DNA of 62,346 nucleotides, filler included, from Collodictyon triciliatum (taxonomy: Eukaryota): assembly GCA_043381765.1 (NCBI GenBank). It is 2 parts of 2 records of this genome, joined end to end, with 100 filler letters (N's around TTAATTAATTAA, not from the genome) between each part and the next. Parts side by side here need not be neighbours in the genome. Positions count along the whole stretch, not along the records: positions 1 to 31,293 come from JBHJMP010000931.1; 1 more part is not named here. The stretch is one strand, 5' to 3'. Each line of letters starts with the position of its first letter. The first letter of the stretch is position 1. Below the pieces are notes generated by a model. It worked only from the letters and a program-made list of their open reading frames with translations, ran no database searches and was not told the origin of the DNA. The translations under genes were made by a program, and so were the position numbers. Below, one piece after another: positions 808 to 62,346 of this stretch.

Positions 808-3800
808 ATGGTTGGTCACATAGTATAATTTGATTGTTTTGCCAAATTACTGTCAAATATATTGCATTCGAGGGGGTTGGACTGGCTCTCCTTTTCTTCT
901 TCTTCTTCTTCTTCTTTCGTCCTCTCCTTCACAAGACTGGTACTGCTCTTGCTTAGGTGAACCCGGAAATCCCTGTGGAGGAAGATCAGGACAAGATCCT
1001 TGAAGATTCTCGTAATGTGATCAAGAGCCAAAGCTTCCAAATGAAGCGCTCCCTGGTGAGCCTCACTTTTCCTTTTTCCTTTTTCCTTTTTCCTTTTTCC
1101 TTTTTCCTTTTTCCTTTTCCCTTTTCCTTTTCCTTTTTCCTTTTTCCTTTTTCCTTTTTCCTTTTTCCTTTTTCCTTTTTCCTTTTTCCTTTTTCCTTTT
1201 TCCTTTTTCCTTTATTGAACAATTACTTTCAGTTCCTATGTCAAAACCTTCTTGGAAACCTGCATATGCCGCAATGACAAGGCTTCTGCCAAGTCCTCAA
1301 AGTCTATATAGTAAAACGAACCATACTCCAGGATCAAGGAAAAGTGATGGAGGCCATCAAGTTTTGCAGCGCTCTCATCTCTGAGCTCCGCACTGGTCTC
1401 ATGTCCCCCAAGAATTACTACGATCTTTGTAAGTTGCCATATGCCCCTTCCTCCACCACTAAACTCGCCTACATATTCGGGAAACGGCTGATCAATACCT
1501 TCTATGAGATGCTGATGACATATTCATGCCTCCTTTGGAGCAACCAACCCTCTAAAAACCCAAACATTATCATTCTAGACATGACAGTTTGCGACCAACT
1601 GCGCCATCTAGAATCTCACCTGTGCGATGACTTCACAAAGGGAAAATCGCTCGGCGACCTCTACGAGATTGTGCAGCATGCAGGGAACATCCTACCCCGC
1701 TTGTTTGCCCTCAAATCTGATCATTAAAACTCTTCAACATCAAAATCATATATTGTAGCATAGCACTAATATTATGAGTTGGCCACATACCAAAATCTAT
1801 TTTCTCTTTCTTTACACATGTACATACTCACTTGCTAATGTGCGGCCCCAGGTACCTCCTTTCCACAGTGGGTTCAGTCTACATCAAGACTAGTCAGGCC
1901 CCAGCAAAGGATATCCTTCGCGATCTCGTCGAAATGTGCCGTGGTATTCAGCATCCCATGAGAGGCCTTTTCGTGCGCAACTATCTTTCCCAGATCAGCA
2001 AAGACAAGCTCCCTGACACTATTGAAGAAACGTAGCTACTTCCATTCCTTCCTCTCTCACATTAGCTCCTCACGTGCAAATACACTCAGTAATAACAATA
2101 ATAATCTAATTCGTGTTGAGGGTATATGAGTTGCAGAATGCTGTCTGCCATTTTTTCTTCATCTCACAAACCAATCGACATTATCGGCAAATAAAACTCT
2201 AGCGAGAATGGTAGCGTGAAGGACTCCATCGACTTTGTCATCCAAAACTTCACTGAGATGAACAAGCTCTGGGTTCGTCTTCAACACCAAGGTCCCGTCC
2301 GCGACCGCGAAAAGAGAGAAAGAGAACGCCTCGAACTTCGCATTCTCGTGGGAACAAACCTCGTTCGTCTCAGCCAGCTGGAATCAATTAACACTGAAAT
2401 CTACCGTGAGGTAAGTTGAGCCACAATTTCTTTGCCAGCTTCTTTATAACCATCCTGGCATCCATGTTCTCTCTTTCCTCAAAATTTGCCGAGACTATTT
2501 TTTTTTTTTTTTACACAGGATGTTCTTCCCCGACTGATGGAGCAGATTATCAATTGCAAAGACCAAATAGCTCAGCAATACCTTATGGAATGCGTTATCC
2601 AGGTTTGTTTACCAGAAACGTCATTCATGGACATATCTACCTTTATGTATATCCAATTGTCGAGTTTTTACATATGAGGCATACAGACATCGCAAACTAT
2701 TAAAATTTTAATTCAACCATTTTGCTTCCAAGGTGTTCCCCGATGAATTTCACCTTGGTACATTGGAAACACTTCTTGACTCATGCGTTCAGCTTCAGCC
2801 AGGAGTCAACATTAAAGACATTCTTGGCAGCTTGATCGACCGTCTTGTTAGCTTTTCTATTCGTTCCCCTGATGAAATACCCAAGAACATCGCTATCTTT
2901 GGTATATTCCACGCCCAAATCCGCGAGATTGTTGCAGTAAGTATATCATGGTATCAACCTTAGTATCACCTTCGTAAGGAATATAATAAATATTTTTTTC
3001 TTCACAATAAACGTAATCAAAACAGAAATGCATGCCTTGGTGTGATACAATCCCAGAAATTAGCATCCAATTTCATTCAATCTACAGAACCGCCCCAAGA
3101 TGAGCATGAATGACATTCTGTCACTGCAAGTCTCACTCTTGAACCTTTCGTTGAAGCTATATCCTGAGCGATTAAACCACATCGATAATATATTTGTTTA
3201 CTGTATCGAAAAGTTCCAGGCTGCAGAAACGTCAAAGTATAATTTATATGAAAAGTCATGTATCCCTCAAAGCTTCTCTTGATAAATACGACTCCATTTT
3301 CATGCAACAATCTTATAGACTGGAAAATGAGGCTTGCATCAAAAGGGTGATTGAGCTGCTTACCTCTCCTGTTGACTCATACGGAAGCGTTGTTGCCGTT
3401 CTGGACCTTGAGAACTACACCAAATTGATGGAATACCTCGAGTTCCCTTACCGGAAGAAGGTTCCACGATATCATTTGTTTCTAACTTGATTTCAATCCA
3501 GGTTTATGACTTTTTCTTTGGTTCTTTGTTTCCTTCAGAAAGGAAGATTCCTCTCGCTAGCATGTCTCGTCTGAAGTAAACCTTTGCTCATCAACCAACT
3601 TTACCTGTCAGGTGTCTGTAAATGTTGTGGAAAGTTTGCTTCGCCATAGCAGCTCTCAGATATCTGAAGTGGATAAGGTCAACAAACTACTCACATTCAT
3701 TAGTCCACTTATAGTTGATGACGCTGAAAATAGTGAACAGGATAAGGCAAGTCTGCATATGCGTTATCCAAATCAATAACATATGTTCGCTTTGTGGCAA

Positions 3801-18600: not shown

Positions 18601-20658
18601 CCATGAAATCGAGTCGATGACAATACTCACTCCAATTGTGAAAGAAAATTTTGGAGGCATTACAGCTACCGGACTTTATGCAGTGAGTACAATCTAAGCT
18701 ACTTTTCACAAATCATTCTTGAAACCCAAGACTTTTTTTTTTAAAAAAAAGAGCATATATTATGTCAAAAAGCTGAAAATAAAGAAAAATCACAAGTCCA
18801 ACGCATTTCTCCTCAGGTGTACTCAAAATTTATGAGAAAACGGGCGGATGAAATGGATTTAATGAATAGTACTATATTGAATGAGTCGAAACTTACTTCA
18901 TACTTGGTAACGATTTTACCTCAAATGCACATTATGAGTTGATGCTAGATTACTTTTTTCTAAAATATGTTCTGTGAATTGAAAAGGGCAACAACACATC
19001 ATTTATCCATCAGCCAAATGCTTTGTCTAGCTGTGAGATGGATGCTTCTACGGCGAATAAAGAGTCTAAGAGCCTTACTTCGGAATCAAAAGATGGTTTA
19101 AGTAAATTGAATAGTACTAATAAACTCGACTCAAGTGACAGTATTCAAGGAAAGAAAAACTGGGATATTTCTTTCTCTGAATTGGTAATGGACGAGGGAC
19201 ACCTTGGCACAGGGTCTTTTGGAACTGTCACAGCAGGATGTTATAAGGTTATTTTGCTACGATTTACAGCGTTTAACTAAAGAAAATTCATATTTTGTGA
19301 AATAGAAGACTAATTATTGGTCGTAACAGTCATACTTATTCCTTTGAATTGAATTATGTATCACATATAAACAAATTGGTGGTAATATCACATTTGCAAT
19401 CTCGATATATTTAATCATGACACAGGGAATCAAAGTTGCTGTTAAAAAAATGGCCGTGCAGAGTATGAAGGACAAATATTACCTCACCTTTCTTGCAGAG
19501 ATATCAGTTCTCAAGTAATCATGCAAACTTAATCTATTTACTTGACTGTCTACTTATCATTTATGTTCATATATATTTTTTTCATATCCTCAGGAAAATT
19601 GTCCATCCAAATATTGTCAAGCTGATTGGCGTTTGCACAGAGCCTCCCAACTTGGCTATTGTAATGGAATTGGTAACACCAGGCAGCCTTAGCGACTATC
19701 TCAGAAACAGGGCCAACCCTCTATCTCACGATGCAAAGTAATATCTTTACACCTAGTTCAAAGTATAATTGCAGTAATCCTTATGAGTCTTTTCCCCCGG
19801 TTTTTATTCATCCAGAGACAATATTATACGCGGAATATTATCTGGAATGAGTTATCTTCATTCACAAAAGCCACCAATTTTACATCGTGATTTGAAAACT
19901 GCAAATATTCTTGTGAGTTTTTACCTGATAAATGTATGCAGAATTTTATGGTTTCATGAATAGTGTGGTGATGTAATTGACTTATTTTGCATCATTGGTA
20001 GTTGAACGAGGATTTGGAATCAAAAATATGCGATTTCGGTTTTGCTCGAGCTCGAGTTCATAACCGGACGATGACAAAATGTGGAACTCTGACATACCAA
20101 GCACCAGAGGTTTATATCAATCTTACAGAAATTCATTTTTATTTATTTTATGATGCATTACTGATAATGATAATAACGATGATAATTGTAATATCACCTC
20201 CAATATTACTGCTACCAAGATCGCTATCTTCAACCATAAGCATAACCTCAACATTAACATCATCATTATGATTATCTTCATTATAATGAGGTTTTTTTTT
20301 ATTGTTATTTTAAATCAATGCCTGTTCCCTTTGGAACTCACAATGCATATGTACGTGCTAGGTAATCAAAGGGGGCCGATACGACGAAAAAGCTGATGTA
20401 TACAGCTTCGGTATCATCCTTTGGGAGATTGAGACGCGGGAACAGCCTTTCGGCAACCGCGACCCAATTGCTGTCCAATTCGACGTCTTGAGTGGACTTC
20501 GGCCAGAGTCCCGCCCAACCATGAATTCGAGGCTTCTTCGAATGATGTCGTCCTGTTGGGACGGAAATCCTCGTAAACGTCCATCTTTCAGCACTTTACA
20601 CGACACGTTTGGGAGTTCTCGTCAACAAGATACAGATGCGCCCCAGTTGACTTCCTGA
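15605..20658 (+). CDS. TM helix + TKL kinase + degenerate class III nucleotide cyclase domain + second TKL kinase (multi-exon)
   Basis: TM LSLGIGLSFICIISLSIYGFWYRRK. Kinase 1: IGEGSFGIV, VAIK, LRHPNIILYMG, HRDLKSLNVL, DFG, GSLLWLAPE, DVYSFAII. Cyclase-like: PNGEVVVV..SESLWD..HNKIIR..WPQGLL..RGLRIQIGI..AHGGQILL. Kinase 2: LGTGSFGTV, VAVK, HRDLKTANIL, CDFGFAR, CGTLTYQAPE, DVYSFGII. Stop TGA at 20656-20658. Confidence 0.93.
16145..16213 (+). mobile_element. Short A-tailed insertion flanked by an 18-bp direct repeat (TSD-like) in a kinase intron
   Basis: AAATAATGCAGCAAGAGT at 16145-16162 and 16196-16213 flanks GGTCCTGAACAAAGTTGAAAGGAAGAATAAAAA. Confidence 0.55.
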
Positions 20659-20979
20659 CAATCTTAATGATTTCTGCATCGCCCACCCGCCCCATCGAGG
20701 AGCTATTTAAAGCTATAAATTTCAACCCTATGTTTGTTTCATAGTAGGTTTGCCAGGCGAAAAATTTTCCAAAGATCGATCTATTTCTGCATATCATCAA
20801 ATCTCATCACGGTGTGGATAAATGTGGTGATCACGCTGAGAGGGACAGACTTGAGAGGGACAAATAATAATAATAATAAAAGGGGAACTGAAAGACCTAT
20901 CGAACTCAAGCCATCGACCCACGGGTAGCAAGATAATTAGGATTATAGTGCTCAGTAGTTGTTGCTCTGATTCATTTAT

Positions 20980-21146
20980 CTTTTCCTTTTCCCTTTCCTT
21001 TTCCCTTTCCTTTTCCCTTTCCTTTTCCCTTTCCTTTTCTCTTTCCTTTTCTCTTTCCTTTTCTCTTTCCTTTTCCCTTTCCTTTCTTTTTCTTTTTTCT
21101 CTTCTTTTTCTTTTTTCTCTTCTTTTTCTTTTCTCTTTTTCCTCTT
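20980..21146. repeat. Pyrimidine-rich repeat (TTTTCC/CTTTCC)n
   Basis: Directly visible. Confidence 0.9.
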
Positions 21147-21877
21147 ATGCTTTTTTTTTTCTCTTTTCTCTTCGGTCTCATTCAGCCTGTAAATGGATCT
21201 ACTTCATTGTTAAGGTTGTGACGAACTCGATTTTATCCCTTTCAAGGCACAACACTTTTTATACAATTATAATGTGCCCATATATAACAGTTTATGGCAC
21301 TGACAACCATCGAATTAAATATGGATTGACGAAAGCAGGAGCTTTGATGAATCCAAGAAAGCACCTGAATAATATAAAAGTATGATTAGCGTATAATAAA
21401 ATTAAAAATACTTAACAATCTTATTCTATTCCTGTAATTAATCTATACTACATTTCCATCTACGTAATATCAAAAAAAATTAAAAATTACAAAGAAGCCC
21501 TTGCCTTGGCCTAGACAGAACCCACCCTATAAACCTGCCACCAAACATGCATTTCAAAAAGCATACTACCCACACTTGCGGCGGTAATCACGTTGTTTGG
21601 GGCCGATATAGTGACTTTCAGTCGCAATAGCTATACAGCTGTCTTTTCGAACTCGCCGAGTCGGCTCTCAGCGTTTCGTCTCAAATCACTTATAAAAAAA
21701 ACTTTGTGTGTCTGATTACCACGATGCGCACATTTTGAGAGTCTCGGTAGATGCTTAATTTTAGATGAATTGATTTTATGCAGTTGTTTTTATTTAAATT
21801 GACTGATTGACTAAAGTTTTATTGAAATTGAAAACTCGGTAGTTTTCTCAAGGAAAAAGTAAAACAAAGACTTTCAG

Positions 21878-23833
21878 ATGAAGAAAAGAAAACGTCTTGA
21901 GTCTGAGAATATAAAGTCTGTAAAACTAGACTATCGAAATGTGAAAACATCTCTAAAGTCGATTGTAAAGAATCTGGATGGCTATGACAAAATCAATGAT
22001 ACGGTTTTATTGTTTCATAATTTCGTTACCGATACTTATCTGTTTGCAAGATGTTACATATTGAAAGCACAACAACACCCAACAATCGATGAAATGTGTT
22101 TTTTTTTTTTGTACGCTTTAAAGACAGTCGGAATAGTTCCACAAGATAGACCCGCAAGTTTAAATAAAACCAGAAATGAGTAAAGACATGGTGACTTTTT
22201 ATCTCAATCATTTTCGATTCCTTTTATCCCAAGAAGAACGCTTTCCATTGGTTGGACGGTCTCATGTATTACTGTACTTGACGAAGTAAGTGTTAACAGC
22301 TTATCGTTATAACACTTAGGAGCATTTTGTAAAGAGGTTACTGCGCTTTATAAATCAAACAGTTCTTAAAGATGGGGATATTACGGAAGCCATTAAAAGG
22401 GCAGAGTTAAGAAAGTTAAAAAAGCCATCTTCAAGAAACTCGAAATACCAAAATAATACAAAGGATGGGCTGCAACGCATTTGCATCATATCATTCCCAG
22501 CAATATTGTAAAAGGTATCGAATATGATGTCAAAGTCAATCCAAATAAGTACATTTCATGTTTGATTTTCATGAATTGCATTTTTGAGGACACTGGAACC
22601 AAACTGTTTCAACCAATCCCTATAAGAACTAATAATATACCATGCATATTACTCTAGATACTACATGTTTGATATATCTATTAGTATCAACTGGAAAAAC
22701 ATCATAAATGAAGAACATATCAGGATGCAAAGAGACCCTATGGGATAAGTTCTTTGAAATGAAGAGGGTCTTTCATCAAACAGACTACAATTTTATATTC
22801 ATGATACAAACAGACGGCTTGGCGGTGTCATTATTATTTAAAAAGAAACGTATTTCAAATTCAAAATTGAACTATAATCAAAACCCCAAGAATATGTTTA
22901 TGTAGACGAACTTTCCGAAGAGCAGCTATCTTTATCAGAGACAAAAAAAAAATAAAAAAAAATAGTTTGAGTGGACGCAGGCAAGTTTAATATGGTTTAC
23001 ATGGTGGACGAGACAGGTAAGTAATTACGCTACACGGCACACCAAAGGAGACATGATAGCAAATCTCTTAAAAATCACAAAAATACTCTTGCTCGAGAAA
23101 AAAAAAAGTACAATTCTTTAGGGATATGCATGGCAACAGGCTTACAGAGTGCTATTTCTTTTGGTCACAGGACTTTTGAAGAGAATCAGCGGTTTGAGAC
23201 ATCAAGAGTATCTTAAATCGATTTAGAAACAGACCTGAGTAAACATAATTCATGCACGGTCGATTATGAACAATTTCGGGAATATGTATCTATGAAATCA
23301 AGATACCAGTAGAATTTTCCAGATTTTATGAACAAGTAACTTTTCGAAAGACGAGATGGAGACAGTAATTTAATACAAGAAGTGAATAGTTGTTTACGGA
23401 CCGAATCGAAAAGACATTTGGCAAGGATGTTGCACTGGCGTACGGAGACTGGAGCAGAAAATGTCAGACGAACCATTTTATGCCAACAATCAGAAGAGGA
23501 TTACGAAAAATACTATCCAAACGTTTTGACATATTTAGTGTAGATGAATTTAGAACCTCCAAGATTTGCTGCAACTGCGAAAAAGAACTGGAATAAACGA
23601 CGCTGAAAGGAAATAGGAAAAAAGTGTGTAGATGTCTCATATGTAAAGAATGCAATCGCTCAGAAAGCAAAAAAAGTGTATTCTTGACAAGGGACTTTAA
23701 CAGCGCTAAAAATATACCCAAGAAAGTTCTTTTAATCCTTCAAAAATGCACGCACCTTTCTCTAAAAAACAAGCTGTTGGGTCTTTCCTGGCAGCCTTCA
23801 CCACTTCACAATCATAGTGAAAAAAGGTGGTGA
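21878..23833 (+). pseudogene. Fanzor1 (eukaryotic TnpB-like RNA-guided RuvC endonuclease), intronless, with several stops and frameshifts
   Basis: Joined frames give VKTSLKSI, EHFVKRLLRFIN, YDVKVNP, KLFQPIPIRTNNIP/HITLDT, IQTDGLAVSLLF, RuvC-I IV*VDAGK (D at 22974), LRYTAHQRR, YGDWS, MPT, VDEFRTSKICCNC (E at 23546), the second zinc-finger half CKEC, and RuvC-III TRDFNSAKNI (D at 23693). Confidence 0.9.
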
Positions 23834-23960
23834 GACCTTGGATACTAGCGCACCAGGATTACCAATCTTTCGATTGGTATGTCCCTTCTAGTAAAAGAAA
23901 CGTCTCGAAAGCCACTCTGGCGCTGATTTCGTATGATTTTATTCTGTGTGCCTCGATTAA
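23770..23960 (+). ncRNA. Putative Fanzor omegaRNA scaffold / element right end
   Basis: Stems cluster just 3' of RuvC-III: GCTGTTGG/CTGGCAGC, CACCAC/GTGGTG with inner TTCAC/GTGAA, a perfect TACCAATC-TTTC-GATTGGTA hairpin, and AGCG(CA)CCAG/CTGGCGCT. The position matches where TnpB/Fanzor omegaRNAs are encoded; boundaries are inferred. Confidence 0.5.
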
Positions 23961-61399: not shown

Positions 61400-62283
61400 G
61401 GTTCCGGACGCAGGACTTTCTTGATAAGCGAGACAAGTAGGAAGGCGAGAGTTCTTTGAGAATAAAGTAGAAGAAGTGTCCAACAAACGGAGGGCAGCAG
61501 AGCAAGAAGAATGAGTCGGGTTGTTTCGCACAGACTCGTGTTTGCTTCGTCTCGATCGACCGATTGGCGAGAGATATGCGGGCTGGGAAAGCGATCTTGC
61601 GTGTGTTGGTTGCGGTTTGTGGTCGGATTACTGATTAAATCTGGAATATATATATATTTACGATAAAAGTGACAAATATAAGAATCAAGGCCATTATCAT
61701 GAAGAAATTAATTATTTAATGCTGAATGTAATGTAAAACTATCATGTCAAAGTATCTGAAAGCCACGTCATTGTTTTATCCCCAGGCCATTAGCTTCAGG
61801 ATCTGGAAAAATGATACGGATCACAATAAAAATAAATGCAAACATCACACTTAGAGACAGACGTGAAAGAACAGTATAAAAAAACACAATTGATGAGAAA
61901 AGTCTGTTTTGCTGAGAAACAAACGCACTGAGAGAGAAAATAGACACATTATCTGAAACGTAATATTATTACTTGAGGGCTCTTTCCTTCTCCCAACCCA
62001 CCACATTCTGAAGTCGGAACAAAAAAAAAAAAAACGCGCAAGGGATCGGAAAGAGGGATCCTTGAGAAGGACGAGACCAGCGCCACAGCCCTGCGCCAAT
62101 GAATGCCTACTGCGGTACGCAAACTGAAGAGGCCGATGCAGCAAACGCAGAGAGCGAAAAGGTCACTTGATTTCATCCCCTTACAACACAGGTTGTGCAG
62201 ACACACCGATGATCAAGACGCCAGCTGCCACCGACCCCCGAGTATAACAACTTATGAATAAGACGGAGCGAGCTCTTTAAGCA

Positions 62284-62346
<63 letters not shown>
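62284..62346. repeat. (AAT)n microsatellite to the window end
   Basis: Directly visible. Confidence 0.9.

Follow-up and report, generated by a model that had tools for sequence, protein, structure and literature searches.

A decayed Fanzor1 nuclease gene carried by a non-autonomous, CTAG-ended Helitron in Collodictyon triciliatum

A broken reading frame in the genome of Collodictyon triciliatum (assembly GCA_043381765.1) raises two questions: what kind of gene it is, and what brought it to a place between host genes. The frame lies in a stretch of 62,346 nt, here called the window, whose positions 1-31,293 come from JBHJMP010000931.1. A sequence-only reading had proposed a decayed Fanzor1 nuclease of giant-virus affinity at 21878-23833, inserted between host genes without an adjacent transposase, and had remarked that intact copies elsewhere in the genome would make a new programmable nuclease family member.

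The pseudogene and its intact relative

The gene occupies 21878-23820 on the + strand, about 645 codons interrupted by about 11 stops and 6 frameshifts, both counts being approximate. Its ATG at 21878 falls on residue 1 of P0001, an intact metagenomic relative of 648 aa that came up in a search with a sister copy's longest natural frame (64% identity), and the window copy maps to P0001 from end to end. The start proposed earlier stands. The end does not: position 23833 belongs to a wrong frame entered after a shift near 23744, and the last true frame (KKQAVG..., common to P0001) stops at 23815-23820.

In a frameshift-aware alignment to P0001, the catalytic codons of the window copy are the RuvC-I aspartate at 22974 (VDAG), the alternative glutamate at 23546 (VDEFRTS) and the RuvC-III aspartate at 23693 (RDFNS), with a glycine at 23444 (YGDWS). 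The order D, G, E, D agrees with the rearranged RuvC of Fanzor1 (D, Gly or Pro for the RuvC-II Glu, an alternative Glu, D), a criterion taken from Jiang 2023 (PMC10530073; cited, like the other publications below, for its accessible parts). The four cysteines of a C4 zinc finger lie at 23567, 23576, 23642 and 23651, between the T/S-S and RD motifs. Cysteines and triad alike are the majority state in 34 Fanzor copies of this genome, and the residues of P0001 at the D, G, E, D positions (D364, G521, E555, D604) are invariant among 44 relatives. The triad and finger picked out in the sequence-only reading were thus real.

The C-terminal piece of the window copy alone matches a Parasitella Fanzor1 (E 2.4e-10) and SpuFz1 (E 3e-4), so its likeness to Fanzor1 is not due to chance. 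Among PDB sequences, P0001 matches only three solved Fanzor1 chains at E<0.01 (2e-28, 3e-24 and 4e-23). Its structural model (pLDDT 85) is close to SpuFz1 (2e-27, TM 0.73) and far from mimivirus Fanzor2 (8.5e-5, TM 0.18). A test set beforehand, on profiles of the Fanzor/TnpB families, was ambiguous: Pfam returned nothing relevant and no PF07282 on 8 fragments of the window copy, and PF07282 scores 13 and 16 bits against a cut-off of 26.3, staying below it even for the intact P0001 (13 bits). What is decisive for the class is the agreement with solved Fanzor1 proteins in sequence and in modelled fold. The stretch 21878-23820 is a decayed Fanzor1, as first proposed, and is filed as a pseudogene.

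A protein search over 1.84 billion representatives yielded 3147 matches. Relatives are encoded by 267 stretches of IMG/VR contigs, and the 80 best of these are 36-47% identical to P0001. Phage records gave no match with P0001 as query, and P0001 as a single query against viral and metagenome contigs returned zero loci. We built a tree from 112 sequences over 589 columns, leaving out fragments shorter than 520 aa, matches past P0100 and near-duplicates; it is rooted at the midpoint, without a TnpB or Fanzor2 outgroup. Five copies from the Collodictyon genome cluster with P0001 (1.0) and are nested in clades containing viral-contig proteins (0.97, 0.99). As far as sequence relationships go, the tree shows the kinship with giant-virus Fanzor1 that the motifs had suggested, without identifying a donor. 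Nine of ten viral-contig relatives tested are bounded by 30-bp inverted repeats that match at 29-30 of 30 positions; a search for this repeat in the Collodictyon element found none.

Two features set the subfamily apart. P0001, P0048 and the Collodictyon family carry an insertion of 25-30 residues at about residues 410-440, modelled with low confidence and lacking in other relatives, which is possibly a subfamily marker. P0001 and the Collodictyon family also lack an RP..F.R-like motif near the C-terminus that is present in other relatives.

The Helitron around the gene

The flanks are indeed split host genes, with pieces of a kinase upstream (PF07714, E 1.5e-16) and of an OATP/MFS-type transporter downstream (E 8e-8), and no transposase frame stands beside the Fanzor gene. 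However, the gene is not a lone insert between them; it is cargo of a high-copy non-autonomous Helitron at 20720-23891 (+ strand, 3172 bp), here without about 400 bp of left arm that is found in other copies. Similarity among copies ends sharply at the CTAG at 23888-23891, beyond which the flanks are unrelated: in 59 copies the columns read C in 49, T in 53, A in 47 and G in 45, followed by T in 52 and then divergence. Going left, the common parts are a pyrimidine tract, a conserved segment and then an arm that begins near 20720 with a TTTG tract.

From left to right on the + strand, the window copy begins with a 5' end read by eye to within one base (20720-20745; A|TTTC..., then the short TTTG tract). 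A left-arm piece at 20807-20873, 81% identical to the left arm of copy L020, is common to Fanzor-bearing and Fanzor-less copies. In the Helitron segment at 20887-20983, the end of a RepHel N-terminal repeat remnant is fused to a subterminal region (77% identity over 98 nt to C1887, E 7e-13). A pyrimidine-rich microsatellite (20975-21175) follows, which in Fanzor-less sisters lies directly 5' of the terminator hairpin. At the capture junction (21176-21184), the motif TCTCATTC leads into the Fanzor cassette. The non-coding cassette leader (21184-21877) had no significant match in 160 outside loci and none in Rfam, so that its origin was not found. At the right end, two stem-loops predicted to form the core of an omegaRNA scaffold (23773-23834) overlap the end of the frame; then come a terminal hairpin with an 8-bp stem (23860-23879; DNA fold z -4.4), whose loop is TTTC here and GAAA in other copies, and a 12-nt tail ending in CTAG (23880-23891) and followed by a host T. 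The spacing of this tail is that of a native Helitron end.

About 24 5' ends were read by eye. They are fuzzy, and automatic calls were noisy; about 18 begin with TT and 2 with TC, which counts against a canonical HLE1. Two Fanzor-less sisters likewise lack a 5' TC. Owing to this lack, the element is filed as HLE1-like but non-canonical. A precedes about 19 of the 24 ends, and T follows CTAG in 36 of 40 Fanzor-bearing and 19 of 19 native ends, a target preference common to both. ATAAA occurs within 14 nt after CTAG at 21 of 40 Fanzor-bearing and 11 of 19 native ends, compared with 0-6 at greater distance. The motif is like a polyadenylation signal, and any guide taken from the flank would be very A-rich because of it. 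A noisy test for target duplication found overlap at the chance level in 12 automatically paired ends, about 5 of which had been anchored wrongly at the 5' side; the window copy and L020 are each flanked by TAAA left and right.

The element begins about 60 nt past the last coding exon of the tyrosine-kinase-like gene (20658-20720) and so may lie in its 3' untranslated region. A second left arm of the same Helitron family, 73% identical over 504 nt, is found at 61821-62303 in the window.

The genome also holds a Helitron gene to which the arms can be linked. Locus L054 (G000:C6377:627-4208) is a RepHel gene that spans at least 1194 codons and encodes STPR, Helitron_like_N and PIF1 domains. It is open over its readable parts; the Rep core (HUH region) reads N and the contig ends inside the helicase, and the locus is possibly a young autonomous Helitron. 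Three Fanzor copies bear a stretch 72-74% identical to its start (E 8e-41, 2e-35 and 7e-16). The window copy itself has no match to L054 at E 1e-3, and its kinship runs through C1887 and the longer copies. On C1887, a decayed RepHel/PIF1 Helitron joins a stretch like the start of L054, immediately followed by the segment like 20887-20983, to a helicase with 92% identity to L054 across 239 nt; its 3' end is a GCGAAGC-type hairpin with CTAG|T. STPR repeats are almost confined to HLE1 (PMC11417382), and since the arm is linked to L054 and C1887 and L054 bears STPR, the element would descend from an HLE1-group RepHel element, on domain content and shared stretches. At the same locus on C1887 (L108), three Helitron-derived pieces lie close by, each with its own CTAG|T end and one with a decayed PIF1 helicase.

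The native hairpin end has 51 matches in the genome and 0 in a reversed control. Among 30 native ends examined, 20 carry CTAG and 26 are followed by T; upstream, 13 share the window's Helitron segment, 7 its left arm, and 10 have RepHel remnants. One Fanzor-less sister, L116, is complete at about 860 bp. Conversely, the Helitron segment lies upstream of 33 of 42 cassette starts, and of 26 of 29 where the flank reaches at least 500 nt. By homology, these matches show the element to be kin both to Helitrons of this genome that code for RepHel and to others that lack Fanzor.

Sisters and loaded copies part at one point. After TCTCATTC the sisters have the native hairpin, and the loaded copies have the cassette (21184 in the window); 31 of 42 cassette starts end in CATTC, and a like motif is found, under a loose rule, in 15 of 30 native ends. 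In loaded copies the native hairpin is gone, and a substitute hairpin stands at the end of the cassette with the same 12-nt spacing to the CTAG end. The perfect part of the native stem is shorter than that of the substitute. As judged from the aligned copies, the cassette begins at the very position taken in the sisters by the start of the terminator hairpin. The order of events is inferred, and the sisters could be later products of deletion or recombination. The 12-nt tail was considered as a pointer to the end that was replaced, and discarded as it is equally like both native subtypes (5 of 8 free positions each).

One locus, L115 (G000:C7635), is a chimera in which a complete native Fanzor-less Helitron runs through its CTAG into the 3' third of a Fanzor copy. 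That copy is cut at its 5' side and its left part is absent upstream; the insertion is nested at an A|T of the Fanzor frame. The arrangement is as expected from read-through. In the Helraiser system, read-through rises upon loss of the hairpin (PMC4778049).

Copies, their decay and the structured tail

The copy number of the element is estimated at several hundred, with about 7.5% divergence. A 3-kb DNA search of the genome gave 460 candidates, of which 40 were scored, many near full length at 83-87% identity; a protein search gave 656 candidates and a 3'-end search 311. A strict 3'-end pattern occurs 57 times, counting one site twice, and recovers 4 of the 34 copies known from other queries, which extrapolates to about 480 Fanzor-bearing ends, with a wide error. 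For 21 full copies, identity to the column majority is 91.5-93.3% but only 87% between one copy and another, as in a star-like burst.

Intact copies elsewhere in the genome are not supported: 0 of 34 near-full copies are intact, each having 3-17 frameshifts and 2-16 stops. An outside Fanzor1 query scored at best 152 bits in this genome, with stops, among the 69 scored of 1052 candidates, a non-exhaustive sample, against 355 bits for the intact P0001.

The ancestor of the copies may have been in better order. None of the internal majority codons is a stop in 583 alignable columns, the catalytic residues are the majority state (D 27/33, E 23/31, D 31/31), and for many intervals the frame is kept in about 75-90% of copies; frames are scattered in others and three intervals are uncallable. 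We read the scatter as slippage in A/T runs. Together, the lack of a majority stop, the triad and cysteines as majority state, and the largely kept frames are compatible with a founder that had an open frame. The decay of the copies is neutral. The ratio of non-synonymous to synonymous changes is 3.29 for private changes, against 3.45 expected, and is not lower for shared ones (5.86, p 0.056). The copies show no purifying selection among themselves, which supports a passenger role for the nuclease.

Family-like contigs cross the cassette in four of four sequencing runs compared, two of them guessed to be RNA; all these matches are contigs and carry no claim on expression. In copies L027 and L040, internal deletions fuse the Helitron segment to the middle of the Fanzor frame at an identical point. 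One Fanzor copy (L006 and L169; G000:C4698, ~2770-3255) appears to be split just before its terminal hairpin by a different repeat of about 480 bp, which recurs near further loci and looks like a retroelement tail.

The right end of the element is structured. The stretch 23770-23891 folds on the + strand at z -3.5, and two sister copies reach -5.1 and -3.2. In stem 1, where G-U pairs favour the + strand, pairing is possible in 95% of cells on that strand against 71% on the - strand. Covariation in the stems was not above that in shuffles, as is expected of dead copies. The tail has no match in Rfam, and only a weak one to a model of the viral relatives' 3' ends (E 0.66), in which only stem 2 is alike. 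By position and by analogy with SpuFz1 and GtFz1, we predict an omegaRNA at this end. A second omegaRNA-like remnant suspected near 21228-21263 scored merely 0-2 bits and was dropped.

The terminal loop reads GAAA in 43 of 64 copies, TTTC in 19 and is unclear in 2; it is flipped in about a third to a half of copies. Its orientation does not track 56 polymorphic columns (best p 0.019; identity permutation p 0.44), which suggests that the loop was inverted repeatedly. The native Helitron loop was found 51 times unflipped and 0 times flipped. Hairpin micro-inversion of the ordinary kind would account for such flips.

Passenger or partner

We consider the locus to be a broken Fanzor1 within a non-autonomous CTAG-ended Helitron that was likely mobilised by a RepHel protein made elsewhere, the gene itself being likely a passenger; we give this reading a probability of roughly 65%. 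A Fanzor1 cassette, from a lineage residing in giant-virus inverted-repeat transposons, would have come to the 3' end of a short Helitron, where it replaced the 17-nt terminator hairpin and lost its own inverted repeats. Rolling-circle copying would then have passed through the cassette and halted at the substitute hairpin 12 nt before CTAG, at the predicted omegaRNA end. A single burst may have put several hundred copies into A|T sites, all of which would have decayed afterwards. A transcript leaving the element would take its guide from the host DNA past CTAG. Nothing shows that cutting by Fanzor1 aided the spread. Against a mere passenger stand the triad as majority state, the lack of a majority stop in 583 columns, and Fanzor-bearing ends that seem several-fold more numerous than native ones; passenger status is nonetheless more likely than homing.

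Homing would keep the same Helitron carrier and make the nuclease its working partner: an omegaRNA ending at CTAG would take its guide from the flank, empty A|T alleles would be cut, their repair would copy the element in, and this homing would have driven the burst. Besides the majority-state catalytic residues, the structured tail that is kept and ends at the element terminus speaks for this, as does the excess of Fanzor-bearing ends (roughly 480) over native ends (51 found). P0001, known here from its protein, has the same unusual C-terminus, where frame and stems overlap, and is encoded on a contig of 2610 bp, roughly as long as the cassette, so the arrangement may be old. In Chlamydomonas, a small RNA spans a Helitron2 3' end (bioRxiv 2023.06.13.544871). 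On the other side, the copies lack purifying selection and the stems lack covariation, Helitron donors are mostly restored so that there is little to re-home into (PMC13565253), and the Fanzor of a Chlamydomonas Helitron showed no cleavage (PMC10530073). We regard a homing partner as unlikely, if more credible than any other alternative. Slightly more doubtful still is a long-standing partnership of CTAG Helitrons and Fanzor1, in which one hairpin-CTAG end would serve both as terminator and as 3' edge of the guide scaffold, and each new insertion would direct the nuclease at its own empty A|T allele. If that were true, P0001 would be a living representative on which Helitron homing could be tested directly.

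That the carrier is instead a Helitron2 (HLE2) or of proto-Helentron type, like the Chlamydomonas elements CRe-1, 2, 3, is improbable. A 5' TT with a 3' CTAG has been described for proto-Helentron (PMC11417382), and the published Helitron-Fanzor1 cases are Helitron2 (PMC3627910), but the element lacks a 5' hairpin (z -0.8, -1.0), none of its 25 longest listed inverted pairs is terminal, it inserts at A|T and not T|T, and it is linked to a RepHel with STPR repeats, which are almost confined to HLE1. Least probable of all is an independent Fanzor transposon or giant-virus insert that landed by chance beside Helitron debris, with a coincidental CTAG end: the nearest relatives with known context do lie on viral contigs between 30-bp inverted repeats, and a 7-bp inverted match (21174-21180/23832-23838) can be picked out by eye, but the same left arm before the cassette at unrelated sites in 26 of 29 long-flanked copies largely refutes it, the viral repeat is absent, the flanks are split host genes and not viral, and most of the left 7-bp motif recurs in Fanzor-less sisters, which also disqualifies that match as a Fanzor inverted repeat.

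The Helitron-borne passenger has precedents in part. Fanzor1 was reported in Chlamydomonas Helitron2 elements by Bao and Jurka 2013 (PMC3627910), Jiang 2023 (PMC10530073) lists non-autonomous Helitron carriers, type not stated, with CrFNuc showing no cleavage, and a 2026 review (PMC13565253) cites further Helitron-Fanzor cases in Repbase. CRe-1, 2, 3/CrFNuc of C. reinhardtii likewise combine a Fanzor1 with a non-autonomous Helitron, many copies and a 3' structured RNA, which is a prediction here. They differ as Helitron2 elements with asymmetric inverted repeats, TTTT targets, frequent target duplications and introns (PMC3627910, PMC10530073), whereas the Collodictyon element is intronless and dead, ends in hairpin-CTAG, inserts at A|T and has the link to an STPR-bearing RepHel. 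SpuFz1, GtFz1 and PpFz1 (PDB 8gkh/9cey, 9cer and 9cf0) are alike in size, fold, rearranged RuvC and C4 finger at about 20% identity; in GtFz1 stems overlap the frame end as they do here (PMC10432273, Saito 2023), and SpuFz1 lies between 30-nt inverted repeats, unlike the Collodictyon cassette. The Fanzor1 elements on giant-virus contigs (for example L195, L196 and L198) form the nearest clade with known context and have a weak likeness in stem 2, but are intact and bounded by 30-bp inverted repeats that the Collodictyon element lacks.

The closest likeness on the Helitron side is to HLE1 non-autonomous gene-capturing elements (Helraiser/Helibat; PMC4778049, PMC11417382), which have the same hairpin and CTAG, the A|T target and an AT-rich 3' flank, and which form new 3' ends after terminator loss, as proposed here. 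In the Collodictyon element, by contrast, the 5' end usually reads TT, an entire RNA-guided nuclease is carried, and the predicted RNA tail supplies the terminator. No CTAG-ended Helitron with a Fanzor1 was found in the accessible parts of the literature, including PMC3627910, PMC10530073, PMC10432273 and PMC10711439 (Yoon 2023); Repbase, figure S3 and table S1 of Jiang, and bioRxiv supplements may contain one.

The window copy itself is dead and the nuclease family was already known. That Fanzor1 changes carriers was known too, but the step is rarely visible, and here the loaded element, sisters without the cargo and the RepHel family occur together in one genome. The junction coincides with the terminator hairpin, and viral relatives of the gene are still bounded by inverted repeats. 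Because Helitron donors are usually restored, Fanzor in Helitrons has been called a puzzle (PMC13565253). The Collodictyon family offers a defined test of this puzzle, with P0001 as an intact natural relative.
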